Position numbers and translations under genes: made by a program. The notes beneath the pieces are model-generated. The model made no database searches, was not told the origin of the DNA, and saw only the letters and a program-made list of their open reading frames with translations. Of a stretch of DNA of 64,000 bases, positions 8,411-31,580 are shown piece by piece (the stretch's first letter is position 1; every line of letters starts with the position of its first letter). Location: assembly GCA_964016885.1 (NCBI GenBank), contig CAXHJY010001158.1, positions 109,769-173,768 on the forward strand, read 5' to 3'. This stretch comes from Eledone cirrhosa. Taxonomy: Eukaryota.

Positions 8411-8549
8411 TTTGTTTTTAACATTGTTTTGTTTTTCTTTTCTTTTCTTATTCAGATGACAAACGGCAGAGGATACAACAGAAGAAAAGAACAAAGATAA
8501 TTATTATTATTATTACTATTATTATTTGTTTTATTATAATCAAAATATG

Positions 8550-10385: not shown

Positions 10386-10387
<2 letters not shown>
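10139..10387 (+). mobile_element. Restriction-like endonuclease (RLE) fragment of an R4/Dong/NeSL-type non-LTR retrotransposon
   Basis: HNRPDLVVVDKEKRSCLIVDVACP...EKINRYQDLKWEVKRIW...VIPI matches the PD-x-D..K..Y RLE motif; flanked by (TTA)n tracts. Confidence 0.75.
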
Positions 10388-10429
<42 letters not shown>

Positions 10430-11027
10430 TATTATTTGTTTTATTATAATCAAAATATGCTGTTAGTTAGATCTGCATTGTGTACATTTTATATAATTTA
10501 TGCCAGTTCCTTTTCTACATATCGAACATGGCCATTTCCCTGACGGAATAGAGTTTTGTCCTCTTTTCTACTCATCAACACTCATTCGTGACACAAAGTA
10601 CAGCCAGCGGCATCATTGCGGACAGACTTAATCCTGATTTGCACTGACACACTGCCTCGCAATACGGAACACCGCACGTCTTTGATCTTCTTCCCGTCGA
10701 TCAGCCTCCTTGCCATGCAAAGTACACCTGACGTCTAGCTTCTCTCTTAGCGGCGGCGGCTGTATATTCTTCTCTACTCCCACTAATTTTCCAAGCATTC
10801 CATGCTAGTCTTTAGTCTCCAATGGCCCGATCTACAGTTTCTGTCTCAACTCGTCTATGCTTGGTCGTTCCCGCACATTGACATTGCACATCCAACGGAG
10901 CATGCTTGCTTCATTTCTCTCCAGCCGTCGCATGTCCTCTGCAGTTGCTGCCCGTGTCTCACTACCATGCAGCATCGCGCATCTAAACCTGGCCCTTACC
11001 CTAACCCCAACCTCTTTGGTTTTCGTT

Positions 11028-11863: not shown

Positions 11864-11941
11864 GAAGAGATATTGTCCATGGATATCGGGAATTTTACCC
11901 GCCCTAGATAGATAGATAGATAGGGATGTATGTATGTATGT

Positions 11942-11985
<44 letters not shown>

Positions 11986-12364
11986 GTATGTATCTTTCTC
12001 ATTCTCTCTGTATGTATGTATGTATGTATATATATATAATTATATATTTATAGACATCCTGAAAGCTTTTTAAATGTCTGAGAGATTGGCTAAATATGTT
12101 TTGCAGGTATGACCAGTAAGAGAGAGGTAAGTTATTTCAAAACAATTCTTTGACCATTATTTTAAGGTACTATCTCAGTGTATTTTTAAATTGACCTCTT
12201 GATAGGATGAAATGACCTGTATAATTTTTTTCATATTTAGATGGAATAGAAGAAAAACAAGAAAAATGAAATGAATTCAAACAGAAAATATACACCAATG
12301 CCAATGGAGGTATGATTTCAGTTTAATCTTAACCTAATGACCACTTTACAGAGTGTACTGGATA

Positions 12365-12449
<85 letters not shown>

Positions 12450-12894
12450 AGGAAGCTCCAACCGTTAAGGTTGTCTTTCCATTTATTAATATATTGTGTA
12501 TTTACTCCACTAAACTGTTGAGTGCTTTATATCAGTTATAAAAAAATTTCAGCTTGTTGAATCCCAAAATAGTTGTTGAAACAGCCACAGCTCAGCCGTC
12601 GGGGTCCTGAATATTTATCATATATATATACGTATGAGTGTGTGTGTTTTGAGAATTAATAATTATATAAACAAGTTTGTAATGAACAATTTATTTCTTA
12701 TCAAAACTGTATAAACATGATATTATTTACAGTAAGAATAACAATAATAATGATGGTTTCTAGTAAAGGTGGAAGGCCAGTAATTTGGGGGAGGGGAAAG
12801 TTGATTAAATCGAAGAGAGAAAGAAAGAAAAAACAGAACGGGAAGGAGAGGGGATGGCAAGAGGTCCGGTGTCGCAGGAGAGAGGGGAGGGTGG

Positions 12895-13395
12895 TTGAGC
12901 TTTGAGTCTAGGGCAAGAGGGCAGAAATGCTGCGCCCCACGGATAAGACGGCAAAAATATTCTCGCGGACGATGGCCAGAGATACCCAATGCAACAACCA
13001 CCCAACCTCGCGGTGTTCCCTCCTCAGATGGGCTGCTGACTCTCCGATCTTTTGGAGGAGCTCGGCAGTACAAGGTCCAAGTACTCCTGGGGTCTCGACG
13101 TTGACTGGTGCAGAGAGGAAGTGGCCGGACAATCCTCGGTATTTGTTTATTTTACGTTCTTCTGCGAGGTGGGCTGCGATGCCGGGGTTTGTGACCGAAA
13201 CGACTTGGAAACGAAGTTGTAGGCGGAGATTGTGTCGTAGCTGGTGGTGTCCCAGATGAGGGACCTACGTCCTTCGAATGGGAAGAGAGTGATTCCGTCG
13301 GGGCGCTTGCCATCTCCGGGACCTGTTGGCCCCAGTTGTGATGGGAAGCCAGCTGCGTCCAGGCTTCTTCTCAATATGTCGTTGACAACGACGTG
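12895..13395 (-). mobile_element. CRE-clade-like non-LTR retrotransposon 3' fragment (RLE domain), frameshifted (copy 2 at ~46612-47112)
   Basis: GDGKRPDGITLFPFEGRRSLIWDTTSYDT, and the C-terminal LAIVRENIFAVL resembling the CRE QRGNA..VL motif. Confidence 0.7.
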
Positions 13396-13939
13396 TATCT
13401 ATTCAATAATTATTTGAATATTGAAATTTTAGGTTTAACTACCTTTTAAACCAAATACATTAAGAAAGGCATGACCAACACCACATCATTTTTATTTCTA
13501 TTTTGAAAGTAGGTTTATAAGTATTAAATTTCAGTAGATTCTTATATCCTTCATGGTGGTCTGGTGGGAGATACGAGAGATGGTGGAGGTTCTGGTCTGG
13601 GGTTCAATCCTGCTCAGGAGATACTCTAAGGGGGTTCATACTAAACTTCTTCAGTGTTTCTTATCTCTAGAGACAAATATATATACATAAGGTAATCTGG
13701 TAAAGTTGTTAGAACATCACATAGAATTCTTTGTAGTATTTTTTCCAGTTCTTCAATCTGAGTTCAACTTTACTTTTCTTCCATTCGGGGTTGATAATAA
13801 CGTACCAGTCAAATACTAGGGGTTAATTCTTCCTCTATATCTCTTTCTCACTCTCTGTCTGTTTTATTAAGACCTGGAGAGGTGATGTACTCTACCAGGT
13901 TTTATAATGAGTGATGGGGTCATACCTGCCTGCTACACC

Positions 13940-14262
13940 TCTGTGTACTAAGTGTAGCATATTATATCCTTGTTCAGGGCCTTCCTGACATTACTGTGTA
14001 CTAAGGGTAGCATTTTATATCCTTGTTCAGGGCCATCTTAACATTGCTGTGTACTAAGTGTAGCATATTATATCCTTGTTCGGGGCCTTCCTGACATTAG
14101 TGTGTACTGAGTGTAGATTTTAACATCCTTGTTCTGGGCCTTCCTAACATTACTGTGTACTGAGTGTAGATTTTAACATCTTTGTTCAGAGCCTTCCTTA
14201 CATTACTGTGTACTAAGTGTAGCATTTCATATACTTGTTCTGGGCCTTCCTAACGTTACTGT
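13940..14262 (+). repeat. ~53-bp minisatellite, ~6 copies (copy 2 at ~47657-47979)
   Basis: Unit TGTGTACTAAGTGTAGCATATTATATCCTTGTTCAGGGCCTTCCTGACATTAC. Confidence 0.85.
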
Positions 14263-14264
14263 GG

Positions 14265-15040
14265 AAATAGTAGTTTATATCCAATATGTAATATAGATAT
14301 GGATTCTACAGGACTAAAACTCATTAATATGAGGGGTATTAGTAGATTATATGCCATATTTAATAGAGAAATGGCTTCTACAAGACTAAAACTCATTAAT
14401 ATGAGGGGTATTACAGTTTATATGCCATATTTAATACAGAAATGGCTTCTAAAGGACTAGAACTCTTTAAATTGAATAAAATAGTAGTATATATCCTATG
14501 TTTAATACAGAAATGCCTTCTAAAGGACTCATTAATATGAGGGTATTAGTAGATTATATAACATATTTAATACAGAAATGGCTTTTAAATTCAGGGACTC
14601 GTTAATTTGATGGAAATAGTAGTGTCTATGCAATATTTAATACAGAAATAGCTTCTACAGGACTAAAACTAATTAATATGAGGGGTATTAGTAGTATATG
14701 TGCCATATTTAATACAGAGATGGCTTCTAAATGGAGGTATCTCATTAATTCGATTGAAATGGTAGTGTATATGCAATATTTAATACAGAAATAGCTTCTA
14801 CAAGAATAAAACTCATTAATATGAAGGTTATTATTACATTATATGCCATATTTAATACAGAAATCGGTTCTAAAGGACTAGAACTCTTTAATTCAAATCA
14901 AATAGTAGTATAAAGCAATATTTACTACAGAAATGGCTTCTACAAGACTAAAAATCCTTAATATGAGGGGTATTGTTAGATTATATACCATATTTAATAC
15001 AGAAATGGCTTCTAAATGAAGAAATCTCTTTAATTCGATA
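14265..15040 (+). repeat. ~70-72-bp AT-rich minisatellite, ~10 diverged copies (copy 2 at ~47982-48757)
   Basis: Recurring ATATTTAATACAGAAATGGCTTCTA with alternating variants. Confidence 0.8.
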
Positions 15041-15697
15041 GTAATAGTAATAATAATAATAGTAATAGTAATAATACAGCCAATTTTCCACGCAATACTT
15101 TTAGTTAGCACCCCGAACGCATAATTGGGAATATAATCACTTATTTCCTAATGTTTGTTGAGTGAGTTGGGAAAAAAAACTTGGGAAATATATTTTCAGG
15201 GTCTCAAAATCTTAAAGAGAAAAAAAAGTCCTGTGGAAGGTAGCAAAACAATTAGGAAGAAAATGGTTTGAAGTTGGTTGGTGAGTATAAGATTACAGTA
15301 TCTTGTTGATTTCTATAAAGTTTACTTTTAACTGAATTGGTAAAAATGGATAAATTAGAAGACACAATATAATAACTAATATTGTCTTCTAAAACAGGGA
15401 ATAAAAATATGTTGGTGTATTGGGGGGGGGGGGGGGGGTAAACATGTGAGTTAATGGGAATGTTTTTGTTTGTTTTTATTGAAACATATTCAATCTACAG
15501 ATAGGTTGTTATAGTTATTTAGTCTCGGGTCTGCCATTATCTGCAGATTTATAATTGAGGGGTGTTCCAGGTGTGACCACCCTACATTATTCCTAGAGAT
15601 TGTTACTCCTTCATTCTTCAGTCATCTTGGTCTTCTTATGAGATGGTGGTGTAGTCTTATTTATTGTTAAGGTTATGGTCTTCCTTTGTCCACACTC

Positions 15698-15739
<42 letters not shown>

Positions 15740-15959
15740 AAAGGCTTCCTTCTCTGGAAAAAAATGATTTAATATTCACAACCATCTGTCTAATTGTTTT
15801 CTGATGAGAATAAAGTTAATCTTGCTTGTATGTCTACCTGATCAAATGACTGGCTGATATCTTGAAGTCATTTACACCACAGAACTGTAGGAGTCTTGAT
15901 CCCTCAAGCCATACCTCTAGCCATCATGTACTCCAAAAGAGTCTCACCTTGGTGCTACT

Positions 15960-16765
15960 CAACATGTCCATTAAATTTAGCAGCAAGGATGCCCTCTTCT
16001 TAGTGAGAGACAACTACAAGAGAGGTTCTTAGAGAAGAATAAGCCACTATAGTTAACTTTTGTTGACATAGAGAACCCCGATCTGTCATCTGGTGGTCCT
16101 TAAGGAAACTAGGTGTAGGGGAATGGCTTGTGAGGACAGTGCAAGCTATGTACAAGGGTGCTGTCAGTAAAGTGAGAGGAGGAATTCCAGAAACAAAGTA
16201 GGTGTACATCAGGGTTCGGTCCTCAGTCCGCTCTTGTTCATTATAGTCCTCCCTCCCTCCCTCCCTCCCTCCCTCCAAGCCATAACAGAGGAGGAGTAGT
16301 TTAAGACTGGATGCCCATGGGAACTTCTCTATGCTGACGATCTGGTTCTTATAGCAGAATCAGTAGAGGAGCTAGCTAGAGAATAAATTCTGGCTATGGA
16401 AACAGCAGTAGTTGGAATCAAGAAGACTGAGAGTGAACCTAGCTAAGACAAAAGTGTTTATAAGTAGAAGAGAGGACAAAACTCTGATTCTGTCAGGGAA
16501 ATGGCCATGTTCGATATGTAGGAAAGGAGTTGGCATAAATTCTATGAAATGTAGTACGCAATGCAGATCTTGGCTACACAAGAGATGTAGTGGGATAGCA
16601 GGAAAACTGACTGACAGGTAGGGAGAAATACGTATGCAGTAGATGTACAGGGAAATTTGACAGAGATTGCAGTGATAGACACATTTTTCAAATGCAGGTG
16701 GGATCTATAGAGGGAGTTGATAGCTTCTGATACCTAGGTGATCAGATTAGTAAGGGAGGAGGGTG
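15960..16765 (+). mobile_element. Decayed RTE LINE reverse transcriptase fragment (copy 2 at ~49677-50486)
   Basis: GVHQGSVLSPLLF (16201-16240), ELLYADDLVL (16321-16350), LRVNLAKTKV and WPCSICRKGVG; frameshifted. Confidence 0.8.
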
Positions 16766-17294
16766 ATATAAAATATATTGTTATCATGACTGTCTTTATT
16801 ATTTAAATTACCTCTGTCTATTTACAGATTTTACAGAGTGTACTGGGTGCTTTTATGATGGGAGCAGCAACTCTATACGATTTTACAGAGTGTACTTGGT
16901 GCTTTTATCATGGCACATGGCAGCAGCAGCAGCAGCAACTACGATTTTACAGAGTGTACTTGGTGCTTTTTACTCTGACATCAGCACTGAGGAAGTTGTC
17001 ATATTTTCAGCTAAATTAATGAGTAGAAAAACCAAGTTTCTGCTACAAAAAATTCTCAGATTCAAGGGAGACATTCAGTTTAAGTATGGTATACTGTCAC
17101 TAAGGCAGCAAATTGGCAGAGTCGCTAGAATATCAGATAGCATTCTTTACATTATTTGTTTCAGCTCTCTGTTCTCTCAATTCAAATCCTGCTCAGGTCA
17201 ACTTTGCCTTTCATCCATACAAAATAGATTAATAAAAGTACCAGTGTATTACTGGGGTCAATTCTTCTTCTAACTCTTCTGCACTTCCATTCTC

Positions 17295-17379
<85 letters not shown>

Positions 17380-17941
17380 GCTTCTTTAGAACACATCTGC
17401 TGTATTCAGACCTGGAGCGGAGATGGGCTCCACCAAGTTTTAAAAATTGCCCTTTAAGCGCTGTATGTCAATATGGTGCCCCTATGATTCCCTCCCTCAG
17501 GAGTTATGGGACCATAGATACTGTCAATTGTAAAGAATAACAGAGATATTCAGTGCTAGTGTGGTGTTCTGTCAGTTGTGGAGATTGATGAATCTAAACA
17601 GAAATATCAACAGCACTTTTCATTTCTGAGTAACACATTTGTTACCAAGTGCTGCATGGCTGGAATGAAAATCAGTGCTGTGAAAACCAAGACATTCATC
17701 CTCTCAAGGAAGCTTGTGCAGTGCACTCTACATGTAAATGGAGTCCCACTGAAGCAGGTAGAAAAGTTCATGTATCTCGAAGCTGTGTTCACGAGTGATG
17801 ACAGAGACGGCAAAGGCACAACACACAACAGAAGAAAAGAACAATGACAATTATTATTATTATTATTATTATTATTATTTGTTTTATTAGTTTTATTATA
17901 ATAAAAATTGTGCTGTTAGTTTGCTTGCTATACCATCATGT

Positions 17942-18030
17942 ACCCTAACCCTAAACCTAACCCCAACTCCAACTCTGACCCTAAACCTAACCCCAACCCC
18001 AACCCTAACCCTAACCCTAACCCTAACCCA
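17942..18030. repeat. Telomere-like (CCCTAA)n tract with variants
   Basis: ACCCTAACCCTAAACCTAACCCC...CCCTAACCCTAACCCTAACCC, fused directly to the spacer repeats. Confidence 0.85.
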
Positions 18031-18613
18031 CGATAGAAGACGTTCGTTACCGCTGGAGCAACGCAAATTACTCCTCGGTTGACGCCAAAAACGAACGCCT
18101 TCTCGACGGCTAGCCGCATTTCGTGATCCGCCTTTCGATTGCGCTTCCGTCGCGGAAAAAGAATTGCCTTTATAGGCCGCCGCCGCCCGACCGGACCCAC
18201 GATAGAAGACGTTCGTTACCGCTGGAGCAACGCAAATTACTCCTCGGTTGACGCCAAAAACGAACGCCTTCTCGACGGCTAGCCGCATTTCGTGATCCGC
18301 CTTTCGATTGCGCTTCCGTCGCGGAAAAAGAATTGCCTTTATAGGCCGCCGCCGCCGCCCGACCGGACCCACGATAGAAGACGTTCGTTACCGCTGGAGC
18401 AACGCAAATTACTCCTCGGTTGACGCCAAAAACGAACGCCTTCTCGACGGCTAGCCGCATTTCGTGATCCGCCTTTCGATTGCGCTTCCGTCGCGGAAAA
18501 AGAATTGCCTTTATAGGCCGCCGCCGCCGCCCGACCGGACCCACGATAGAAGACGTTCGTTACCGCTGGAGCAACGCAAATTACTCCTCGGTTGACGCCA
18601 AAAACGAACGCCT
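18027..18613 (+). promoter_or_regulatory. 169-172 bp rDNA intergenic-spacer-like repeats (3 full + 1 partial); candidate RNA polymerase I spacer promoters
   Basis: Units start at 18027, 18196, 18368 and 18540. Each full unit contains CTTTATAGGCC, and the array lies ~360 bp upstream of the 18S 5' end. The promoter role is inferred from position and from similarity to TATAGG Pol I initiation motifs. Confidence 0.55.
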
Positions 18614-18972
18614 TCCGGTTCGGGCGACGTAAAAGTCTGTAGCCTTTTCGCCGATCCTCGACGATTATCCGCCTTCCGAACAACCGCCTTTCCGCCGTCA
18701 CAGCAGTAGGTACTCGTCCGTCGTAATAGCCGTCATTTTAATGCAGGAGAAACGCCTAAATGCACTGCGATTGACGACGATCTACGACGCGCTTACTCTT
18801 CCTTGCTGCGACGAAGGTTTCGTTCGGCTTTTCGTCGTGGACCCGGTCAGGTCATGCCGCTGATCTCGCGTTGCGTCGTTACCGCTGGAGCAACGCAAAT
18901 TACTCCTCGTTTAACGCCAACATCGAACGCGCTTCGGTTCTCGGTCGTCGTTGTTTTGTTTCGTGCGGAAGA
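18614..18972 (+). other. 5' ETS-like leader (copy 2 at ~53164-53514)
   Basis: CpG-rich sequence lying between the spacer repeats and the exact 18S 5' terminus. Confidence 0.55.
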
Positions 18973-19158
18973 TACCTGGGTGATCCTGCCAGTAGTCATA
19001 TGCTTGTCTCAAAGCTTAAGCCATGCAAGTGGAAGTTCATGCCGTAAACGAAAATGGTGAAACCGCGAATGGCTCAGGAACCGGATCTAATCCTCGGGAC
19101 CGTATTCCTCACCGCGAGGAGAGGATAACTGTGGCAATTCTAGAGCTAATACATGCAA
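18973..19158 (+). pseudogene. 18S rRNA 5' fragment (~185 nt)
   Basis: TACCTGGGTGATCCTGCCAGTAGTCATATGCTTGTCTCAAAG, GTGAAACCGCGAATGGCTCA and GGATAACTGTGGCAATTCTAGAGCTAATACATGC are universal eukaryotic 18S 5' motifs. Confidence 0.95.
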
Positions 19159-19164
19159 TTGAGA

Positions 19165-22100
19165 TCGGAGAGGGAGCGATCCGTCTGCTTGATTCCGATA
19201 ACGAACGAGACATTCGTATCCGAAAGAACGTTTGTCTGGAAACTGGTGAGTCAGTGAGTCGAAAAAAAAATATCTCGGTGGTAGTAGCAAATATTCGAAC
19301 GAGACATTCGTATGCGAAAGAACGTTTGTCGGTGGTAGTAGCAAATATTCGAACGAGACATTCGTATGCGAAAGAACGTTTGTCTGGAAGTGGCGATCCA
19401 TGCCCGGTGGATAGTTGGTTCCGGGTTTTACTATGATTGTTGCAAAACAGAAACTTAAAGGGATTGACAGAATTTGCGATTCCGGAGAGGGGGCGATCCG
19501 TCTGCTTGATTCCGATAACGAACGAGACATTCGTATCCGAAAGAACGTTTGTCTGGAAACTGGTGAGTCAGTGAGTCGAAAAAAAAAATATCTCGGTGGT
19601 AGTAGCAAATATTCGAACGAGACATTCGTATGCGAAAGAACGTTTGTCGGTGGTAGTAGCAAATATTCGAACGAGACATTCGTATGCGAAAGAACGTTTG
19701 TCTGGAAGTGGCGATCCATGCCCGGTGGATAGTTGGTTCCGGGTTTTACTATGATTGTTGCAAAACAGAAACTTAAAGGGATTGACAGAATTTGCGATTC
19801 CGGAGAGGGGGCGATCCGTCTGCTTGATTCCGATAACGAACGAGACATTCGTATCCGAAAGAACGTTTGTCTGGAAACTGGTGAGTCAGTGAGTCGAAAA
19901 AAAAAATATCTCGGTGGTAGTAGCAAATATTCGAACGAGACATTCGTATGCGAAAGAAAAATATCTCGGTGGTAGTAGCAAATATTCGAACGAGACATTC
20001 GTATGCGAAAGAACGTTTGTCTGGAAGTGGCGATCCATGCCCGGTGGATAGTTGGTTCCGGGTTTTACTATGATTGTTGCAAAACAGAAACTTAAAGGGA
20101 TTGACAGAATTTGCGATTCCGGAGAGGGGGCGATCCGTCTGCTTGATTCCGATAACGAACGAGACATTCGTATCCGAAAGAACGTTTGTCTGGAAACTGG
20201 TGAGTCAGTGAGTCGAAAAAAAAATATCTCGGTGGTAGTAGCAAATATTCGTATGCGAAAGAAAAGATCTCGGTGGTAGTAGCAAATATTCGAACGAGAC
20301 ATTCGTAGGCGAAAGAAAAATATCTCGGTGGTAGTAGCAAATATTCGAACGAGACATTCGTATTCGAAAGAACGTTTGTCTGGAAGTTGCGATCCATGCC
20401 CGGTGGATAGTTGGTTCCGGGCTTTACTATGATTGTTGCAAAACAGAAACTTAAAGGGATTGACAGAATTTGCGATTCCGGAGAGGGGGCGATCCGTCTG
20501 CTTGATTTCGATAACGAACGAGACATTCGTATCCGAAAGAACGTTTGTCTGGAAACTGGTGAGTCAGTGAGTCGAAAAAAAAAATATCTCGGTGGTAGTA
20601 GCAAATATTCGAACGAGACATTCGTATGCGAAAGAACGTTTGTCGGTGGTAGTAGCAAATATTCGAACGAGACATTCGTATGCGAAAGAACGTTTGTCTG
20701 GAAGTGGCGATCCATGCCCGGTGGATAGTTGGTTCCGGGTTTTACTATGATTGTTGCAAAACAGAAACTTAAAGGGATTGACAGAATTTGCGATTCCAGA
20801 GAGAGGGCGATCCGTCTGCTTGATTCCGATAACGAACGAGACATTCGTATCCGAAAGAACGTTTGTCTGGAAACTGGTGAGTCAGTGAGTCGAAAAAAAA
20901 ATATCTCGGTGGTAGTAGCAAATATTCGAACGAGACATTCGTATGCGAAAGAACGTTTGTCGGTGGTAGTAGCAAATATTCGAACGAGACATTCGTATGC
21001 GAAAGAACGTTTGTCTGGAAGTGGCGATCCATGCCCGGTGGATAGTTGGTTCCGGGTTTTACTATGATTGTTGCAAAACAGAAACTTAAAGGGATTGACA
21101 GAATTTGCGATTCCGGAGAGGGGGCGATCCGTCTGCTTGATTCCGATAACGAACGAGACATTCGTATCCGAAAGAACGTTTGTCTGGAAACTGGTGAGTC
21201 AGTGAGTCGAAAAAAAAAATATCTCGGTGGTAGTAGCAAATATTCGAACGAGACATTCGTATGCGAAAGAACGTTTGTCGGTGGTAGTAGCAAATATTCG
21301 AACGAGACATTCGTATGCGAAAGAACGTTTGTCTGGAAGTGGCGATCCATGCCCGGTGGATAGTTGGTTCCGGGTTTTACTATGATTGTTGCAAAACAGA
21401 AACTTAAAGGGATTGACAGAATTTGCGATTCCGGAGAGGGGGCGATCCGTCTGCTTGATTCCGATAACGAACGAGACATTCGTATCCGAAAGAACGTTTG
21501 TCTGGAAACTGGTGAGTCAGTGAGTCGAAAAAAAAAATATCTCGGTGGTAGTAGCAAATATTCGAACGAGACATTCGTATGCGAAAGAACGTTTGTCGGT
21601 GGTAGTAGCAAATATTCGAACGAGACATTCGTATGCGAAAGAACGTTTGTCTGGAAGTGGCGATCCATGCCCGGTGGATAGTTGGTTCCGGGTTTTACTA
21701 TGATTGTTGCAAAACAGAAACTTAAAGGGATTGACAGAATTTGCGATTCCGGAGAGGGGGCGATCCGTCTGCTTGATTCCGATAACGAACGAGACATTCG
21801 TATCCGAAAGAACGTTTGTCTGGAAACTGGTGAGTCAGTGAGTCGAAAAAAAAAATATCTCGGTGGTAGTAGCAAATATTCGTATGCGAAAGAAAAGATC
21901 TCGGTGGTAGTAGCAAATATTCGAACGAGACATTCGTAGGCGAAAGAAAAATATCTCGGTGGTAGTAGCAAATATTCGAACGAGACATTCGTATTCGAAA
22001 GAACGTTTGTCTGGAAGTTGCGATCCATGCCCGGTGGATAGTTGGTTCCGGGTTTTACTATGATTGTTGCAAAACAGAAACTTAAAGGGATTGACAGAAT

Positions 22101-25040
22101 TTGCGATTCCGGAGAGGGGGCGATCCGTCTGCTTGATTCCGATAACGAACGAGACATTCGTATCCGAAAGAACGTTTGTCTGGAAACTGGTGAGTCAGTG
22201 AGTCGAAAAAAAAAATATCTCGGTGGTAGTAGCAAATATTCGAACGAGACATTCGTATGCGAAAGAACGTTTGTCGGTGGTAGTAGCAAATATTCGAACG
22301 AGACATTCGTATGCGAAAGAACGTTTGTCTGGAAGTGGCGATCCATGCCCGGTGGATAGTTGGTTCCGGGTTTTACTATGATTGTTGCAAAACAGAAACT
22401 TAAAGGGATTGACAGAATTTGCGATTCCGGAGAGAGGGCGATCCGTCTGCTTGATTCCGATAACGAACGAGACATTCGTATCCGAGAGAACGTTTGTCTG
22501 GAAACTGGTGAGTCAGTGAGTCGAAAAAAAAATATCTCGGTGGTAGTAGCAAATATTCGAACGAGACATTCGTATGCGAAAGAAAAATATCTCGGTGGTA
22601 GTAGCAAATATTCGAACGAGACATTCGTATGCGAAAGAACGTTTGTCTGGAAGTGGCGATCCATGCCCGGTGGATAGTTGGTTCCGGGTTTTACTATGAT
22701 TGTTGCAAAACAGAAACTTAAAGGGATTGACAGAATTTGCCATTCCGGAGAGGGGGCGATCCGTCTGCTTGATTCCGATAACGAACGAGACATTCGTATC
22801 CGAAAGAACGTTTGTCTGGAAACTGGTGAGTCAGTGAGTCGAAAAAAAAATATCTCGGTGGTAGTAGCAAATATTCGAACGAGACATTCGTATGCGAAAG
22901 AACGTTTGTCTGGAAGTGGCGATCCATGCTCGGTGGATAGTTGGTTCCGGGTTTTACTATGATTGTTGCAAAACAGAAACTTAAAGGGATTGACAGAATT
23001 TGCGATTCCGGAGAGGGGGCGATCCGTCTGCTTGATTCCGATAACGAACGAGACATTCGTATCCGAAAGAACGTTTGTCTGGAAACTGGTGAGTCAGTGA
23101 GTCGAAAAAAAAATATCTCGGTGGTAGTAGCAAATATTCGTATGCGAAAGAAAAGATCTCGGTGGTAGTAGCAAATATTCGAACGAGACATTCGTAGGCG
23201 AAAGAAAAATATCTCGGTGGTAGTAGCAAATATTCGAACGAGACATTCGTATGCGAAAGAACGTTTGTCTGGAAACTGGTGAGTCAGTGAGTCGAAAAAA
23301 AAATATCTCGGTGGTAGTAGCAAATATTCGAACGAGACATTCGTATGCGAAAGAACGTTTGTCGGTGGTAGTAGCAAATATTCGAACGAGACATTCGTAT
23401 GCGAAAGAACGTTTGTCTGGAAGTGGCGATCCATGCCCGGTGGATAGTTGGTTCCGGGTTTTACTATGATTGTTGCAAAACAGAAACTTAAAGGGATTGA
23501 CAGAATTTGCGATTCCGGAGAGGGGGCGATCCGTCTGCTTGATTCCGATAACGAACGAGACATTCGTATCCGAAAGAACGTTTGTCTGGAAACTGGTGAG
23601 TCAGTGAGTCGAAAAAAAAATATCTCGGTGGTAGTGGCAAATATTCGAACGAGACATTCGTATGCGAAAGAACGTTTGTCGGTGGTAGTAGCAAATATTC
23701 GAACGAGACATTCGTATGCGAAAGAACGTTTGTCTGGAAGTGGCGATCCATGCCCGGTGGATAGTTGGTTCCGGGTTTTACTATGATTGTTGCAAAACAG
23801 AAACTTAAAGGGATTGACAGAATTTGCGATTCCGGAGAGAGGGCGATCCGTCTGCTTGATTCCGATAACGAACGAGACATTCGTATGCGAAAGAACGTTT
23901 GTCGGTGGTAGTAGCAAATATTCGAACGAGACATTCGTATGCGAAAGAACGTTTGTCGGTGGTAGTAGCAAATATTCGAACGAGACATTCGTATGCGAAA
24001 GAACGTTTGTCTGGAAGTGGCGATCCATGCCCGGTGGATAGTTGGTTCCGGGTTTTACTATGATTGTTGCAAAACAGAAACTTAAAGGGATTGACAGAAT
24101 TTGCGATTCCGGAGAGGGGGCGATCCGTCTGCTTGATTCCGATAACGAACGAGACATTCGTATCCGAAAGAACGTTTGTCTGGAAACTGGTGAGTCAGTG
24201 AGTCGAAAAAAAAATATCTCGGTGGTAGTAGCAAATATTCGAACGAGACATTCGTATGCGAAAGAAAAATATCTCGGTGGTAGTAGCAAATATTCGAACG
24301 AGACATTCGTATGCGAAAGAACGTTTGTCTGGAAGTGGCGATCCATGCCCGGTGGATAGTTGGTTCCGGGTTTTACTATGATTGTTGCAAAACAGAAACT
24401 TAAAGGGATTGACAGAATTTGCCATTCCGGAGAGGGGGCGATCCGTCTGCTTGATTCCGATAACGAACGAGACATTCGTATCCGAAAGAACGTTTGTCTG
24501 GAAACTGGTGAGTCAGTGAGTCGAAAAAAAAATATCTCGGTGGTAGTAGCAAATATTCGAACGAGACATTCGTATGCGAAAGAACGTTTGTCTGGAAGTG
24601 GCGATCCATGCTCGGTGGATAGTTGGTTCCGGGTTTTACTATGATTGTTGCAAAACAGAAACTTAAAGGGATTGACAGAATTTGCGATTCCGGAGAGGGG
24701 GCGATCCGTCTGCTTGATTCCGATAACGAACGAGACATTCGTATCCGAAAGAACGTTTGTCTGGAAACTGGTGAGTCAGTGAGTCGAAAAAAAAATATCT
24801 CGGTGGTAGTAGCAAATATTCGTATGCGAAAAAAAGATCTCGGTGGTAGTAGCAAATATTCGAACGAGACATTCGTATGCGAAAGAAAAATATCTCGGTG
24901 GTAGTAGCAAATATTCGAACGAGACATTCGTATTCGAAAGAACGTTTGTCTGGAAGTTGCGATCCATGCCCGGTGGATAGTTGGTTCCGGGCTTTACTAT
25001 GATTGTTGCAAAACAGAAACTTAAAGGAATTGACAGAATT
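19165..25040 (+). repeat. Tandem array (~18 monomers, ~317 bp, with 54-bp subrepeats) built from 18S and 28S rRNA fragments
   Basis: The monomer contains CGATTCCGGAGAGGG (18S), TTCCGATAACGAACGAGAC (18S), TCGGTGGTAGTAGCAAATATTC (28S, LR7 primer region) and GAAACTTAAAGG(G/A)ATTGAC (18S). Confidence 0.92.
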
Positions 25041-25074
25041 TTCGAATCGACATCAACTCGGCTACGGCTATCCC

Positions 25075-25415
25075 GTCGAGTACGAGAGTATCGCGGGATC
25101 AGAGCAACGGTTTGCTAGGCTGCCTCTGAGCGATAACGGCTGAACGCCTCCTCTAAGCCGGAACCCTAGCCGGACCCGAGTTGTTTTTCGACAAGCGTCT
25201 CGACCTTCTTAAGGCCCATGCCTTAGTTTGGCGATTGCCGTCCGTTCGCCGACGGCGGCAGCGTCAGCGGAAATGCCATTCTGTGACGACTACGACGATT
25301 CGTCGTCGTCGTCGTCCATTCGATTTCCTGAAAGAGATAGAGACTAAAGTGATCAAATTGTTCGGAGTTACGTGCTTAGTAGAGCAGCTACCACACTGCA
25401 ATCTATTGAGAGTTT
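25075..25415 (+). pseudogene. 28S rRNA 3'-terminal fragment, degenerate
   Basis: GAGTACGAGAG (sarcin-ricin loop-like), GATAACGGCTGAACGCCTC(CTC)TAAG and GTAGAGCAGCTACCACACTGCAATCTATTGAGAG occur in the correct order for the LSU 3' end. Confidence 0.85.
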
Positions 25416-26154
25416 TCTGACGAACGATACAATCCGCCCACGTGGCGCCAGAAAGGGAGAAGAAAAGAAAAGTTAGACGCCGCCGATCGATCGGTTCGTT
25501 GTTTTACGTGTACACAGCTTGTGTGTGTGTCTGTATGTGATACAAGCCGCCTATCCGTCTTCCAAGTAAGTTTTGTGTGTAGACTGCGGAAAGAAATCCA
25601 ATCCGCCGTCTAGGCGGTTCTGCCGCCGACCCATACTTTTGCGAGTCGCTCCCGGGAAAGACAGGCGGCAAGACGGCGTGTATACACGACGCCTTCCGTC
25701 TTCCGCCTCGAACCCGGCAAACGTTCCTTTATTCGTCCACGCCTTCCCGCTTCGATCGCGAGAAAGTAATCAATCTGTTTTGTGTGTGTGTCTGTGTGTG
25801 ATACAAATTTGTTTTCTTAATTTGATAACCATGAATTGTTTCAACACCGGCCCTTTTAAGGGCCACTTATATTTTCAATAATCAGTTTAAATGGGTTGCA
25901 CCGTAGCCACTTGGTAATACACTGCAAATCTCCCGTCAATCTATGAAGGTTTTGTAGTAGATTAGATCAAAACACAATCAGCAAGACAGTAATGGAATGA
26001 ATAATATAAACATTTGTTTATAATTAAAGCCTTAAGATGTCCCTCCCTCCCTCCCTTCCTTCCTTCCTTCCTTCGTTCCTTCCTTCCTTACGATATACAC
26101 TTTAATAACATTGAAACTTATTTAATAAGTTTAAATTTTAAACACTTTTTATTC

Positions 26155-26290
26155 AGACGTACCGCGATAAGTAACTAGATATGTTCTAACGAATAATCCG
26201 CGATGTGGCGAGGATTACCGCGATAGGAAATTAGATACGTTCCAAAGAAATATCCGCGAAAAGTGAACCGCGATATAGCGGGTTCACCAG
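26155..26290. mobile_element. Possible DNA transposon (pogo/Tigger-like) terminal fragment (copy 2 at ~60588-60723)
   Basis: Repeated CCGCGA motifs ending in GAACCGCGATATAGCGGGTTCAC, reminiscent of Tigger-type subterminal repeats. Confidence 0.3.
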
Positions 26291-26444
26291 CCAGTGTATT
26301 ACTGGTACTTTATTTTATCGACCCCCATAAGGATGAAAGGCAAAGTTAACTGTGCAATAACAAAGGGAGATAACCTCGTCTTTTTTTTTTTACGGAGTTA
26401 TTTCCCTTTAAATTTTATCTATTACTTATGATGATACAATTTAA

Positions 26445-26577
26445 TCAGTTCTTAGCTGTCGAGACACTGCATCCTTTAAAACCTCCATGGAACAAGCTAC
26501 CTGCAACAGTTGTTAGCTGTCGAGACACTGCATCTTTTAAAACCTCCATGGAACAAACTACCTGCATCAGTTGTTAG
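26445..26577 (+). mobile_element. Tandemly duplicated ~61-bp piece of a CR1 3' end (copy 2 at ~60878-61010)
   Basis: TGGAACAAGCTACCTGCAACAGTTGTTAGCTGTCGAGACACTGCATCC matches the WNKLPASIVSCRDTASFK region of the LINE at 38480-38540. Confidence 0.75.
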
Positions 26578-26844
26578 GGTCTGAGTTCAAATCACGCCGA
26601 GGAGGTTAACTTTGCCTTTCATCCTTACGGGGTCGGTCGGAAAACGAACCATTCCCGGTTCGCTTTCGAAGCGGGTTTCCGAAAACAGCGCTTCTCTCGA
26701 CCGGGCCCGTCGTCCGCTCGGCGGTGGTTTTCATCGTCCCAGGCACGGCTAACAGGCGGAGACGGGACAAACGCGCGTGTTCCTTTTTTTATCAGCCGCA
26801 GCGCCGTTCGTATATATGCTTAGGTTGTTTTTTTTTTAAATATC

Positions 26845-27060
26845 CTAAGTTAAGTTGGGGCTAAGTTAAGTTGAGGTTAAGTTGAGTTGGGGTTAAGTTA
26901 AGTGGGGGTTAAGTTAAGCTGGGGTTAAGTTAAGTTGAGGTTAAGTTAAGTTGGGGTTAAGTCAAGTTGGGGTTAAGTTAAGTTGGGGTTAAGTTAGGTT
27001 GGGGTTAAGTTAGGTTGGGGTTAAGTTAAGTTGGGGTTAAGTTAGGTTGCGGTTAAGTTA
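26845..27060 (+). repeat. 16-bp G-rich repeat (TTGGGGTTAAGTTAAG)n, ~13 copies (copy 2 at ~61278-61509)
   Basis: Read directly. Confidence 0.9.
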
Positions 27061-30000
27061 CATTCGCCGCCGGACTTCAGCTTCCTCATTTAGCATGGGC
27101 AGTTTTTCTTGAAAATCACACCACACACAGCAAATGTGTGTCCGCACATGTACCAGTAATTACAGATCGATTCCGGTGAAAATTCACTGAAAACGGGCCA
27201 TCCGGCCCTGTGCGTCGATCGTGGGCCGGCCGGATGTTGACGGATCGATGTGTAATTAGAAGTACATGTGCGGACACTCATTGGCTGTGCGTGGTATGCA
27301 TTTCAGCAAGATATCTCCGTAACATCAAGAGTTATGGCTGTGGAGGCACACCTAGTCAAACGTAAACAAGGTCTGGAGCGTTTACGCTTCGCGATTTTGT
27401 TTACGTTTGACTAGGTGTGCCTCCACAGCCATAACTCTTGATGTTACGGAGATATCTTGCTGAAATGCATACCGCGCACAGCCAATGAGTGTCCGCACAT
27501 GTACTTCTAATTACACATCGATCCGTCAACATCCGGCCGGCCCACGATCGACGCACAGGGCCTGATGGCCCGTTTTCAGTGAATTTTCACCGGAATCGAT
27601 CTGTAATTACTGGTACATGTGCGGAGACACATTTGCTGTGTGTGGTGTGATTTTCAAGAAGAACTGCCCATGCTAAATGAGGAAGCTGAAGTCCGCCGGC
27701 GAATGGTGTGCTTCGAAGAAAACTAATTCGAAAATGACCGTTTGCAGGCGGGGTAACCTTTTCGATCGTGGGCCAGCCGCCCGTGGTGGGATCCATCTGT
27801 AATTACTGGTACATGTGCGGACACACATTTGCTGTGTGTGGTGTGATTTTCGAGAAAGACTGCCCATGCTAAATGAGGAAGCTGAAGTCCGCCGGCGAAT
27901 GGTGTGCTTCGAAGAAAACTAATTCGAAAATGACTATTTGCCGGCGGAATCATCTTTTCGGTCCTGGTCCGGCCGGATCTTGCCGGATCGATCGGAAATT
28001 TGTGGACCATGTTCGGAAGGCCATTGTGCATGTGTGGTGAAAAGAATTTGTGTCGAAATCTTCTCGGAAAATAACGGATCGCCGGCGGAGATTGCCATTT
28101 CGATCGTGGGCCGGCCGGATCTTGTCGGATCGATTCGGACATATGTGCATCGTGTTCGCAAGGCCCTTGTCTATGTGTGGTGTGATTTTCATAAAGAAAT
28201 TCCGAAAAACCCAGTTTTAAATCTGATTTCGCCAAAGAATTTTGGCTATCAGATCGGGTTGAAAGGTATGGTTTCAGGTCGATCTGAAAGTCTAAAATGG
28301 AATTCACTCGGTTAGCTAACTATTGATATATCGGAGATATCTTTCTGAAAATCACACCACACACTCCCAATGAGTGTCTGCACATGTACCAGTAATTACA
28401 GATGGATCCCACCACGGGCGGCCGGCCCACGATCGAAAAGGTTACTCCGAAGCACACCATTCGCCGGCGGAATTCATTTAGCATGGGCAGTTTTTCTCGA
28501 AAATCACACCACACACAGCCAATGAGTGTCCGCACATGTACCAGTAATTACAGATGGATCCCACCACGGGCGGCTGGCCCACGATCGAAAAGGTTACTCC
28601 GCCTGCAAACGGTCATTTTCGAATTAGTTTTCTTCGAAGCACACCATTCGCCGGCGGACTTCAGCTTCCTCATTTAGCATGGGCAGTTTTTCTCGAAAAT
28701 CACACCACACACAGCAAATGTGTGTCCGCACATGTACCAGTAATTACAGATCGATTCCGGTGAAAATTCACTGAAAACGGGCCATTCTGCCCTGTGCGTC
28801 GATCGTGGGCCGGCCGGATGTTGACGGATCGATGTGTAATTAGAAGTACATGTGCGGACACTCATTGGCTGTGCGTGGTATGCATTTCAGCAAGATATCT
28901 CCGTAACATCAAGAGTTATGGCTGTGGAGGCACACCTAGTCAAACGTAAACAAGCTCTGGAGCGTATACGCTTCGCGATTTTGTTTACGTTTGACTAGGT
29001 GTGCCTCCACAGCCACAACTCTTGATGTTACGGAGATATCTTGCTGAAATGCATACCACGCACAGCCAATGAGTGTCCGCACATGTACTTCTAATTACAC
29101 ATCGATCCGTCAACATCCGGCCGGCCCACGATCGACGCACAGGGCCGGATGGCCCGTTTTCAGTGAATTTTCACCGGAATCGATCTGTAATTACTGGTAC
29201 ATGTGCGGACACACATTTGCTGTGTGTGGTGTGATTTTCACGAAAAACTGCCCATGCTAAATGAGGAAGCTGAAGTCCGCCGGCGAATGGTGTGCTTCGA
29301 AGAAAACTAATTCGAAAATGACCGTTTGCAGGCGGAGTAACCTTTTCGATCGTGGGCCAGCCGCCCGTGGTGGGATACATCTGTAATTACTGGTACATGT
29401 GCGGACACACATTTGCTGTGTGTGGTGTGATTTTCGAGAAAGACTGCCCATGCTAAATGAGGAAGCTGAAGTCCGCCGGCGAATGGTGTGCTTCGAAGAA
29501 AACTAATTCGAAAATGACTATTTGCCGGCGGAATCACCTTTTCGGTCCTGGTCCGGCCGGATCTTGCCGGATCGATCGGAAATTTGTGGACCATGTTCGG
29601 AAGGCCATTGTGCATGTGTGGTGAAAAAAATTTGTGTCGAAATCTTCTCGGAAAATAACGGATCGCCGGCGGAGATTGCCATTTCGATCGTGGGCCGGCC
29701 GGATCTTGTCGGATCGATTCGGACATATGTGCATCGTGTTCGCAAGGCCCTTGTCTATGTGTGGTGTGATTTTCATAAAGAAATTCCGAAAAACCCAGTT
29801 TTAAATCTGATTTCGCCAAAGAATTTTGGCTATCAGATCGGGTTGAAAGGTATGGTTTCAGGTCGATCTGAAAGTCTAAAATGGAATTCACTCGGTTAGC
29901 TAACTATTGATATATCGGAGATATCTTTCTGAAAATCACACCACACACTCCCAATGAGTGTCTGCACATGTACCAGTAATTACAGATGGATCCCACCACG

Positions 30001-30693
30001 GGCGGCCGGCCCACGATCGAAAAGGTTACTCCGAAGCACACCATTCGCCGGCGGAATTCATTTAGCATGGGCAGTTTTTCTCGAAAATCACACCACACAC
30101 AGCCAATGAGTGTCCGCACATGTACCAGTAATTACAGATGGATCCCACCACGGGCGGCTGGCCCACGATCGAAAAGGTTACTCCGCCTGCAAACGGTCAT
30201 TTTCGAATTAGTTTTCTTCGAAGCACACCATTCGCCGGCGGACTTCAGCTTCCTCATTTAGCATGGGCAGTTTTTCTTGAAAATCACACCACACACAGCA
30301 AATGTGTGTCCGCACATGTACCAGTAATTACAGATCGATTCCGGTGAAAATTCACTGAAAACGGGCCATTCGGCCCTGTGCGTCGATCGTGGGCCGGCCG
30401 GATGTTGACGGATCGATGTGTAATTAGAAGTACATGTGCGGACACTCATTGGCTGTGCGTGGTATGCATTTCACTAAGATATCTCCGTAACATCAAGAGT
30501 TATGGCTGTGGAGGCACACCTAGTCAAACGTAAACAAGGTCTGGAGCGTTTACGCTTCGCGATTTTGTTTACGTTTGACTAGGTGTGCCTCCACAGCGAC
30601 AACTCTTGATGTTACGGAGATATCTTGCTGAAATTCATACCACGCACAGCCAATGAGTGTCCGCACATGTACCTGTAATTACACATCGATCCG
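27061..30693. repeat. Palindromic satellite with a 1,584-bp period; symmetry centres at ~27384, 28968 and 30552
   Basis: ...CCTAGTCAAACGTAAACAA [27-bp spacer] TTGTTTACGTTTGACTAGG... with arms up to ~480 bp. ORF pairs are offset by 1584, and there are internal ~195-bp subrepeats. Confidence 0.92.
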
Positions 30694-30780
30694 ACGACGG
30701 ACAGAGTATTCGGTTTATTTTCTTGACATATTTCTTTACATATTGTCCAGGCATGCACTTTTTCCATGATTAGTTCTGTT

Positions 30781-30835
30781 GACGGCCCGCTTTCCAAAAT
30801 ACCTTATCCTGTGCAACGCCGGGTACCACTGCTAG
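30781..30835 (+). mobile_element. Helitron-like 3' terminus (hairpin + CTAG) closing the palindromic satellite
   Basis: CCTGTGCAACGCCGGGTACCACTGCTAG followed by TATATA; an inverted near-copy of 3721-3775. Confidence 0.65.
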
Positions 30836-31054
30836 TATATATATGTGTATGTATATATATATATATATATTGGTAAACGGAATAGAAAATTGTGACAAAT
30901 TGTTCACAGTGAAAAATAGTTTAATTAGGAATAAGTGATAATTAGTAATAGTATTGGTTAGTATTAAGTTTTGGTTTTAAGTTTTACCGGTTGCGCATTT
31001 CTAATGCTTTTCAAAAATAATTTTGAGATAGAGCGTCCGTGATGTTTGCTCTGA

Positions 31055-31100
<46 letters not shown>

Positions 31101-31249
31101 AACAGTAGAAAGGAAAAAGATTTTTTCAGTAGAAATTGCTGAAGAGATTCTTTCAGTGTAATTTCAAAACATTAATTTATTTATAAAGTGGATATTTCCA
31201 CATTTAATAATGGCACTGGGTTCAGCATTATATACATTGTCAATTGTGG

Positions 31250-31580
31250 ATTCTACTTTTGGCACAAGGGCTGCAATTATCCAGTACATTACTGGTACTT
31301 TATTATTTATACAAATAATAATTGTTTCTACTTTTGGCACAAGGGCAGCAATTACCCAGTACATTACTGGTACTTTATTATTTATACAAATAATAATTGT
31401 TTCTACTTTAGGCACAAGGTCAGCAATTACCCAGTACATTACTGGTACTTTATTATTTATACAAATAATAATTGTTTCTACTTTAGGCACAAGGTCAGCA
31501 ATTACCCCAGTACTTTATTTTATCGACCCCGTAAGGATGAAAGAAAAGTTAACCTCAACGGGATTTGAACTCAGTCTGTA
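31250..31580 (-). repeat. 84-bp tandem triplication joined to a SINE fragment
   Basis: TTCTACTTT(T/A)GGCACAAGG...CCAGTACATTACTGGTACTTTATT repeated 3-4 times, running into minus-strand SINE sequence. Confidence 0.75.

Follow-up and report, generated by a model that had tools for sequence, protein, structure and literature searches.

The question raised by this stretch of Eledone cirrhosa DNA (64,000 nucleotides, hereafter the window) is whether an rDNA unit that has exchanged its interior for an amplified array of rRNA fragments is a working imitation of the ribosomal transcription unit, as the original prediction had considered, or a passenger of repeat amplification.

Structure of the cassette relative to the true 45S unit

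The true 45S unit of the same genome (loci L004/L005), with its genes delimited with Rfam, served as the reference for donor assignment; the host genes measure 2872-2876 nt (18S), 159 nt (5.8S) and ~6.2 kb to 6343 nt (28S), with 10.4-10.5 kb from 18S start to 28S end. Alignment to this unit confirmed the predicted architecture, a collapsed rDNA cassette with an amplified rRNA mosaic, together with its recurrence in the second half of the window (Table 1). The outer blocks lie in native order and all of the 91 rDNA matches in the first 34 kb of the window are sense, as had been claimed, whereas the interior of the mosaic unit is scrambled. The cassette retains 286 of 2876 nt of 18S, none of the 159 nt of 5.8S and 429 of 6343 nt of 28S, and, as predicted, cannot make a ribosome. 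The repeats at its left, which had been taken for spacer repeats, are 5' ETS sequence and number 8.5 in the second cassette.

Table 1. Positions of the cassette, its parts and its surroundings in the window.
Feature	Position	Strand	Match or remark
Shared macro-unit core	8158..31599	+	Holds the cassette, retroelement remnants, microsatellites and 196-bp inverted repeats
Upstream block of duplicated 5' ETS pieces	11020..11862	+	84-95% to ETS -1555..-800
Degenerate telomere-type hexamer run	17942..18029	+	4-nt overlap with ETS at joint
172-bp repeats, 3.4 copies	18026..18615	+	90-95% to ETS -1564..-1176 (C4 unit, relative to 18S)
5' ETS remnant	18616..18972	+	~800 nt missing ahead of final 43 nt
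18S rRNA nt 1-191	18973..19163	+	95%, E 9e-85; 5 substitutions, 2 indels
Minisatellite, ~318-bp units	19164..25049	+	Six sense scraps of 18S, ITS1 and 28S
28S rRNA 3' end, nt 5745 to just past end	25050..25452	+	76%, E 4e-111
Trailer	25453..25806	+	3' ETS and spacer sub-repeat pieces (~+200, +600, +930..+1232); 25500-25806 aligned
73-bp piece from centre of dispersed ~620-bp fold-back repeat	25805..25877	+	Right edge of trailer
Out-of-order 28S fragment, nt 684-878	26640..26846	+	93%
Second cassette	51731..60297	+	Repeats 51731-53165, 18S from 53515, array to 59482
Second cassette, right part	28S tail from 59483, trailer to 60239, stem-loop 60282-60297	+	Alignment

The cassette ends differ from the true unit by 2.6-9.9%, with indels inside rRNA sequence. 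The 18S portion does begin at its first nucleotide, but it is not the exact terminus that had been described (Table 1), and one indel, at nt 8, leaves the first predicted hairpin with 4 pairs instead of 5; the 28S tail has 7.8% substitutions and four deletions (26, 33, 15 and 3 nt). Parts of the 3' ETS repeats and the 43 nt preceding 18S are kept and may carry terminator or processing signals. Neither the window nor the array stretches examined contain a full rRNA gene, and an Rfam search of the window gave no rRNA match reaching the gathering score. The upstream ETS block belongs to the same macro-unit as the cassette and its left junction is array-specific, with 61 exact matches, 60 of them adjoining cassettes and one on contig C1549; the block is also represented by a contig in sequencing run X13.

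The true spacers carry a 16-nt motif containing TATATAGGG, which recurs with a period of ~700 bp across three of them and has its last copy 1779 nt upstream of 18S (C4 unit). From its position and its resemblance to the initiators of plants and arthropods, this motif is likely the Pol I initiator. A search of both strands of the 64-kb window, allowing up to 3 mismatches, gave no match to it: the left edge of the cassette corresponds to ~200 nt 3' of the last motif and the trailer ends short of the next one. The initiation region, if the motif is rightly identified, was therefore not kept, contrary to what had been proposed, and as the likely start signal of the real gene is absent the cassette is likely a passenger satellite. 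Nor does its length imitate that of the gene: the ~6.4 kb that had been taken for a normal pre-rRNA length falls short of the true 10.4-10.5 kb, and the span from 18S start to 28S end varies from 1.3 to 19.6 kb among copies (median 6.4), only 2 of 57 lying in the 9.5-11.5 kb range.

The mosaic unit and the stem-loop at the right end

The ~318-bp unit was assembled from 18S 575-592, 18S 2038-2076, ITS1 275-293, 28S 2062-2100, 28S 1375-1392 and 18S 1839-1896, that is, from sense rRNA scraps of 18-58 nt in scrambled order. Exact sense matches of at least 11 nt span 185 of its 318 nt, against 14 nt antisense and a chance level of 8.3 nt (maximum 36) in 60 shuffles. An inner repeat of 54-55 bp, variable in number, lies inside the unit, the unit pattern varies between the arrays of different copies, and the minisatellite as a whole ranges from 0.7 to 19 kb. 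The array is tandem and homologous to rDNA, and is thus rDNA-derived satellite DNA, with monomer sources in 18S/ITS1/28S and the 5' ETS rather than in an intergenic-spacer sub-repeat. Here a satellite monomer is seen emerging from fragments of the rRNA coding sequence of the large and the small subunit; its donors and junctions can still be read, as can three nested levels of amplification. Satellites derived from rDNA spacers and 5S genes and single-fragment retro-chimeras are known, and the portions of the literature drawn upon here contain no such mosaic.

The predicted RNA fold of the unit, on either strand, is no better than that of shuffled sequence (-83.8 vs -80.9 +/- 4.9 kcal/mol in 60 shuffles). 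Strict extension gave a clean exact overlap of at least 4 nt at 1 of 10 junctions, with 2 more if one substitution is tolerated, which rules out microhomology as a general junction rule; most cassette junctions hold small inserts, as do those of the dispersed rDNA loci. A preference for AT-rich donors (P = 0.09) and hairpin-driven deletion (unusual stability in 1 of 3 deleted 28S pieces) were likewise rejected, and the long open reading frames of the array, which reach 674 aa and change frame from copy to copy, are a by-product of repetition.

Twelve dispersed rDNA loci were examined, of which seven have internal deletions or gaps and five are short fragments, and none holds a precursor of the ~318-bp unit. 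Two loci carry a tRNA-like SINE head fused to 18S nt 1-411, which starts at the mature 5' end, and this makes it likely that the host genome produces rRNA retro-chimeras.

At the right end of the cassette a histone 3' stem-loop (25849-25864; Rfam RF00032, 36.6 bits against a cut-off of 34) lies within the fold-back piece. In the host, 21 of 25 distinct histone 3' ends carry a 4-nt motif 13-17 nt past the stem-loop, which we infer to be the downstream element of the host histone genes, and this motif is truncated away in the cassette piece. The fold-back repeat has 97 exact matches in all, and the 20 non-cassette copies examined have no rDNA within 10 kb. The stem-loop is an arm of this repeat and hence its by-product, not an adopted histone 3' end; a histone gene cluster was also rejected, since tblastn with host histones found no histone ORF in the window.

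A recent macrosatellite and its traces in sequencing runs

The cassette is not free-standing, as had been assumed, but part of a larger tandem macro-unit. The core of this unit repeats ~33.7 kb further on, with 98.9% identity over 10.5 kb between the two copies in the window, and has the same order on C28. The assembly holds 59 copies, 43 of them in one 1.7-Mb array on C28 (one strand, 28-91 kb spacing), with array sequence also scattered across five unplaced contigs; of the 44 copies placed on chromosomes, a single one is found elsewhere, having relocated together with its flanks. These multi-kb, head-to-tail units of high identity are a macrosatellite. None of the 23 true-18S marker hits falls on C28, which places the array apart from the rRNA gene arrays. 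Both ends of the cassette are kept in the window, as predicted, but not throughout: among 11 other copies or stretches examined, the 18S end is missing from one and the 28S end from the C18 copy. Divergence between copies is 0-1.5 substitutions per kb, the cassette differing about as much as its flanks (4-11 copies per segment), and this level of at most 0.15% in both indicates recent amplification and leaves selection unreadable; the copies have had too little time to diverge for neutrality to be demonstrated.

C28 carries Amnionless, which is Z-linked in Octopus vulgaris according to the part of that report consulted (10.1101/2024.12.09.627507), and from this one marker C28 is likely the cephalopod Z. 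A profile search of the host genome for a second Z marker (PF16471) gave no match, and another (PF09744) matched C1 and the unplaced C1420, the latter match being the JIP3/SPAG9-type exon.

In run X1, contigs of the cassette tail have depths of 4062-4107 with zero differences, compared with 4128-4244 for true-28S alleles, contig depth being a rough guide and this ratio coming from X1 alone. The unlabelled run X13, RNA-like in appearance (strand and library unrecorded), also contains array-specific contigs. There the ETS-block contig has a depth of 508 (3576 in X1) and the mosaic contig one of 114 (at least 17350 in X1), the alleles being the same in both runs, so that DNA carry-over alone would not yield 508. 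The deeper X13 contig stems from the upstream block and not from the cassette; the cassette tail, the cassette alleles of the 172-bp repeat and 18S, and the spacer sub-repeats are not covered by X13 contigs, which cannot show absence. Run X13 hints weakly at RNA made from the array, conceivably from a start other than a retained Pol I promoter. Presence in related species was rejected as unproven: in runs labelled as organisms B, C, G and P the mosaic has a low depth and 0-4 differences, and runs X4 and X5 have rDNA variants that the host genome also contains, which fits same-species DNA in those runs.

Origin, alternatives and relation to known systems

Our data suggest that the cassette is probably a collapsed rDNA copy that lacks the likely Pol I start motif, was shredded by break repair, and travels as a passenger in a recent macrosatellite, itself probably on the Z. 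An rDNA orphon would have lost its promoter and most of its interior; repeated break repair with template switching could then have built the unit by same-strand jumps, some via 4-10-nt microhomologies and most with small inserts; by slippage and unequal exchange, three repeats of variable number would have grown, namely the unit, the 54-bp inner repeat and the 172-bp repeat; and the whole 28-91 kb region may have been multiplied by unequal crossing-over or rolling-circle copying, with read-through, or a cryptic start somewhere in the macro-unit, as the source of any RNA in place of a retained Pol I promoter. This reading is supported by the missing spacer motif, the unconstrained span, the decayed and sometimes lost ends, the lack of a fold, the uniform divergence, the internally deleted dispersed loci with their small junction inserts, the trailer spacer sequence beyond the 3' ETS repeats, the out-of-order downstream 28S piece and the by-product nature of the histone stem-loop. 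Against it count an X1 depth near that of true 28S, which is a lot for a passenger, the array-specific contigs of X13, the 91 of 91 sense matches, which an RNA template would explain equally, and the single clean microhomology junction in ten.

An RNA template is the core of a retrocopy origin, in which a LINE reverse transcriptase hopping along one pre-rRNA or between rRNA fragments would have made the mosaic in one event before tandem amplification. All donors are indeed sense and fall within the interval bounded by the last promoter-like motif on one side and the first spacer motif on the other, the two 18S/SINE-head loci offer a parallel in the host, and sense 28S/LINE-1 chimeras made by template switching or RNA ligation are among those described in the consulted part of PMC13174262. 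The present ends, however, show no poly(A), retroelement tail or target-site duplication, the left abutting telomere-type repeats and the right the fold-back fragment; spacer sequence up to +1232 would require read-through; and the separate ETS piece 7 kb upstream and 28S piece 0.8 kb downstream point to a DNA copy that decayed step by step, so that we regard this origin as rather unlikely. We also consider it unlikely that the array is a selected Z-linked element that places or regulates the Z or buffers rDNA dosage, through repeat-rich or small RNAs with rRNA motifs or by binding nucleolar factors as a pseudo-NOR does. The concentration of 43 of 59 copies on the Amnionless-bearing C28, the near-rDNA depth in X1, the X13 depth of 508 for the ETS-block contig, beyond what carried-over DNA alone would give, and the sex-biased Z-linked lncRNAs in octopus, as given in the consulted part of 10.1101/2024.12.09.627507, speak for it, but no fold or length is conserved, either end can be lost, the deeper X13 contig is the upstream block in one run known from contigs of unrecorded strand and library, and the Z assignment comes from one marker, with the JIP3/SPAG9-type exon on an unplaced contig. 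A Pol I-transcribed, defective-interfering mimic, competing with true units and still equipped with signals for initiation, processing and termination, would account for the retained 5' ETS pieces, rRNA termini and 3' ETS repeats, the near-rDNA abundance in one run and the 6-nt match to the spacer-motif core that the 172-bp repeat acquired via two transitions. That match is within chance, however, no full rRNA gene accompanies the cassette in the stretches examined, and the missing 16-nt motif and failed length match remove the two supports of this idea, which now appears very improbable. As for an assembly artefact, array sequence also lies on the five unplaced contigs and no contig of the runs examined bridges an entire cassette; against this, the mosaic junctions occur in short-read contigs of six runs from five studies with 0-4 differences, X1 contigs (perhaps from the assembled individual) span the cassette tail and flank exactly, and unit patterns differ among copies, which makes an artefact hardly credible.

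A bolder proposal, which we think quite improbable, is that of a young Z macrosatellite, as numerous as rDNA and transcribed without a Pol I promoter, whose product would be an rRNA-mimic RNA or which would serve as a nucleolar tether. If true, the dose of an rDNA decoy would differ two-fold between ZZ males and Z0 females, which would amount to a natural pseudo-NOR connected with sex-chromosome regulation, and if the hint of RNA holds there would be a testable tie between rDNA-derived repeats and regulation of the cephalopod Z. In practice, the array could act as a Z-dosage marker, and a repeat perhaps as abundant as rDNA, with conserved 18S/28S stretches, would mislead rDNA FISH, copy-number estimates and the filtering of rRNA reads in this species.

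Functions have been tested for the sex-chromosome macrosatellites DXZ4 and the chicken MHM region, which resemble the array in their large tandem unit, likely sex-chromosome location and possible non-coding RNA but are not rDNA-derived. Judged from its sequence, the array appears to be a variant of the rDNA-derived satellites, any function being putative. Satellites of this class typically vary erratically in abundance between related species. Satellites derived from the intergenic spacer are known in tomato, potato, tobacco and legumes, and, as far as the consulted part of that source goes (PMC2679016), are likewise tandem arrays from an rDNA unit that escaped concerted evolution outside the rRNA cluster, with coding sequence lost and sub-repeats expanded; their monomer, however, is a spacer sub-repeat, whereas ours is an 18S/ITS1/28S patchwork between both gene ends inside a 28-91 kb macro-unit. 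SINE28 and the 28S rRNA/LINE-1 chimeras, in the excerpts used here (PMC10946416, PMC13174262), share the fusion and multiplication of sense rRNA pieces with other sequence, but are dispersed and join a single rRNA piece to a retroelement tail, while the cassette is tandem and tailless and draws on at least six internal donors in addition to both ends. Like rDNA pseudogenes and orphons (PMC10946416, in part; 12 host loci), it is decayed, internally deleted and away from the main array; host orphons, in contrast, keep the native order, show one to three deletions and are few in number, against the backward jumps and internal minisatellite of the cassette and its 59 near-identical copies. Pseudo-NORs bind UBF and decondense at metaphase. 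These synthetic promoterless arrays, covered in the consulted part of PMC4973289, are also megabase arrays related to rDNA that have neither a promoter nor complete coding sequence, but they consist of enhancer repeats with demonstrated UBF binding.

Reference rDNA and anatomy of the cassette

In the host assembly (3.0 Gb, 1796 contigs), 29 of 40 scored candidates matched 5.8S, and reference units were taken from chromosomes C4, C12 and C25. The host is read as a coleoid cephalopod, probably an octopod: its 18S measures 2.87 kb, cephalopod rRNAs being long, and within that 18S a published cephalopod 18S primer (PMC8074623) has a site with 3 mismatches, as against none in 200 shuffles. The true unit spans 10.4 kb (C4) or 10.5 kb (C12) between the first base of 18S and the last of 28S. 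All three true spacers (3/3) repeat a 16-nt motif containing TATATAGGG at ~700-bp intervals, with its last copy 1779 nt (C4) or 2173 nt (C12) before 18S; from this position, and from a resemblance to the Pol I initiators of plants and arthropods, it is the putative spacer/gene promoter core. rDNA orphons and short arrays lie on at least eight chromosomes (C1, C2, C3, C4, C6, C10, C12 and C25; loci L003-L022 and L071-L090), many of them internally deleted; in several, the sequence near 28S 3700-4900 is divergent or gapped. Among 12 dispersed loci examined, seven had internal deletions or gaps, five were short fragments and none (0/12) held the ~318-bp mosaic unit of the cassette's inner array. 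A true-18S marker matched 23 times over eight chromosomes, with none of these genome-wide matches on C28.

Features of the first cassette and its surroundings (window coordinates), with the reference unit
Feature	Position	Strand	Description
Upstream ETS block	10955-11920		fused to retroelement remnant
Exon-like stretches	near 12109-12128 and 12241-12309	+	splice-like edges, by eye
Telomere-type C-rich repeats	17942-18029		adjoin ETS on left, 4-nt overlap
172-bp repeats	18026-18615	+	90-95% like 5' ETS -1564 to -1176
5' ETS remnant	18616-18972	+	~800 nt deleted
18S nt 1-191	18973-19163	+	5 substitutions, 2 indels
28S 3' end	25050-25452	+	30 substitutions/383 aligned nt; deletions of 26, 33, 15 and 3 nt
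16-bp G-rich repeat	26846-27060		adjoins 28S fragment on right
196-bp unit	27061-30693		nested direct and inverted repeats
857-aa ORF	38442-41015	-	endonuclease/reverse transcriptase (PF14529, PF00078), open
C4 true unit			18S of 2872 nt, 5.8S and 28S (Rfam)

The cassette retains 286 nt of 18S, 19 nt of ITS1 and 429 nt of 28S, with 0 nt of 5.8S or ITS2, and its trailer consists of 3' ETS and spacer pieces reaching +1232; rDNA-derived blocks were sense in 91/91 matches in the window's first 34 kb. The original prediction of an 18S 5' terminus at 18973 held for its presence but not for its exactness, and the leader repeats described as spacer repeats match the 5' ETS instead, and therefore lie downstream of the last spacer motif. 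Each 172-bp repeat carries two transitions relative to the true ETS (e.g. 18167-18176), fixed across 53 fetched repeat copies. They give the minus strand a TATA-like word and the plus strand a 6-nt match to the spacer motif; both may be chance. The C-rich repeats on the left and the G-rich repeats on the right are oriented as healed ends, and three perfect telomere hexamers in a row were absent from 308 kb of unrelated loci, a weak lead that an rDNA fragment might have been healed by telomere addition.

The mosaic unit begins with 18S 575-592, 18S 2038-2076, ITS1 275-293 and ~40 nt of no assigned donor, continues through 28S 2062-2100 plus ITS1 (a 54-55-bp inner module of variable copy number), 28S 1375-1392 and 18S 1839-1896, and then returns to its start, so that donor order is native in the first half and jumps backward in the second. 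Sense exact matches of at least 11 nt to true rDNA cover 185/318 nt (antisense 14), against a mean of 8.3 and a maximum of 36 nt in shuffled units (n=60). Under strict extension, the ten junctions comprised one clean 5-nt overlap, one 1-nt overlap and eight in which 1-15 letters were inserted or changed. Inspected by eye, the inner module is explained by a 10-nt word that the scraps ending at 18S 2076 and 28S 2096 have in common, together with a 4-nt 28S/ITS1 overlap. The unit folded no better than its shuffles.

The macro-unit array and its chromosome

Exact matching of the 18S/array junction recovered 59 copies, 43 on C28, one on C18 and 15 over five unplaced contigs. Those on C28 occupy 124.72-126.45 Mb on a single strand, spaced 28-91 kb apart, and the repeated macro-unit takes in the cassette flanks. 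In the 57 copies followed by a stem-loop (excluding the C18 copy and one at a contig end), the inner array is 0.7-19 kb long, and the distance from 18S to 28S is 1.3-19.6 kb, with a median of 6.4 kb. Copies differ by 0-1.5 substitutions per kb, within the cassette as in its flanks (4-11 copies per segment); one C28 unit lacks the leader and 18S end, and the C18 copy the 28S end. The 857-aa ORF interrupts a TA microsatellite in just the second macro-unit and marks a LINE that inserted into the array recently, and the extent of the 196-bp unit differs among macro-units.

At 136.5 Mb, C28 is numbered behind contigs of 22-31 Mb, and sex chromosomes are often numbered out of size order in curated assemblies. 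It carries three exon matches to Amnionless, a gene that is Z-linked in Octopus vulgaris according to 10.1101/2024.12.09.627507; the cephalopod Z is described as ancient and syntenic in PMC10925132. A second Z marker, a JIP3/SPAG9-like exon, fell on an unplaced contig, with another RH1 match on C1. C28 is likely the Z chromosome, which would place the array on it.

The adjoining stem-loop and the sequencing runs

Rfam places a histone 3' stem-loop directly after each cassette. Its 22-nt context has 97 exact matches in the genome (21/97 on C18), and all 20 non-cassette matches fetched belonged to a dispersed repeat and had no rDNA in their surroundings. In the five copies self-compared this repeat is a fold-back reaching ~620 bp, and the cassette holds 73 bp from its centre. 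Of 25 real histone 3' ends, 21 have a 4-nt motif 13-17 nt beyond the stem-loop; the cassette has lost this motif, and the window contains no histone ORF. We read the stem-loop as a neighbour rather than an adopted 3' end. Each arm of the fold-back repeat (C18:7196392-7206391 and 19 further loci) bears a 3' stem-loop like that of histone H4, and a related end adjoins a broken IS1595/Merlin-type transposase (L050:7116-7954, minus strand; PF12762, E 2e-11); a histone 3' end was therefore likely taken up by a DNA transposon family.

All runs were examined as assembled contigs of unrecorded library kind. X1, with zero differences over cassette tail and flank at depth 4062-4107 (true-28S alleles 4128-4244, contig depth being a rough guide only to copy number), may be the assembled individual. 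Mosaic junctions were also present, at depth 2-384, in X4, X9, X5 and X19, which carry the labels of other organisms; because the host genome itself contains the rDNA variants seen in X4 and X5, these runs were not counted as relatives. Run X13 looks like RNA, because its ETS-to-18S depth (212) is far below that of 18S (3903), unlike X1 (4350 and 5343). X13 yielded a 289-nt mosaic contig at depth 114 (X1 at least 17350). It also yielded, as its deepest array-specific contig, 226 nt of the upstream ETS block at depth 508 (X1 3576), whose junction is array-specific (61 matches in the genome). If X13 is RNA, the upstream ETS block is likely transcribed, and the mosaic contig may reflect either a low level of RNA or carry-over of DNA; for array transcription this is a hint from a single run.

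Origin and relation to known systems

The simplest chain, which we regard as probable, would begin with an rDNA orphon that was shredded through same-strand repair, followed by variable-number expansion of repeats and recent amplification as a macrosatellite. A one-step retrocopy is possible given that every donor is sense and that rRNA retro-chimeras likely occur in this genome, although we consider it unlikely. Two loci on different chromosomes (L077:4200-4610 and L088:4534-4944) carry 18S nt 1-411 from the mature 5' end at 100% identity, with a TA microsatellite before it and a tRNA-like SINE head attached; these are likely recent 18S/SINE retro-chimeras (for comparison, see PMC13174262). 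Abundance, location and the X13 hint would suit a function under selection, as a Z-linked RNA or at the nucleolus, which we also hold to be improbable.

Very doubtful is a Pol I-transcribed mimic of the rDNA. A retained initiation region had been proposed, but neither strand of the whole 64-kb window matches the spacer motif, even with 3 mismatches allowed, and the supposed agreement with pre-rRNA length does not survive comparison with the true unit, as just 2/57 copies fall within 9.5-11.5 kb.

The macrosatellite has its nearest kin in spacer-derived satellites (PMC2679016), SINE28 and rDNA by-products (PMC10946416) and pseudo-NORs (PMC4973289), with sex-linked or centromeric rDNA as context (PMC10087745, PMC7598501 and PMC9031259). 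Searches of open-access texts, judged mostly on the listed matches, showed no multi-donor coding-rRNA monomer within a collapsed rDNA unit. We place the array among rDNA-derived satellites, from whose spacer type it differs by its multi-donor coding-rRNA monomer.
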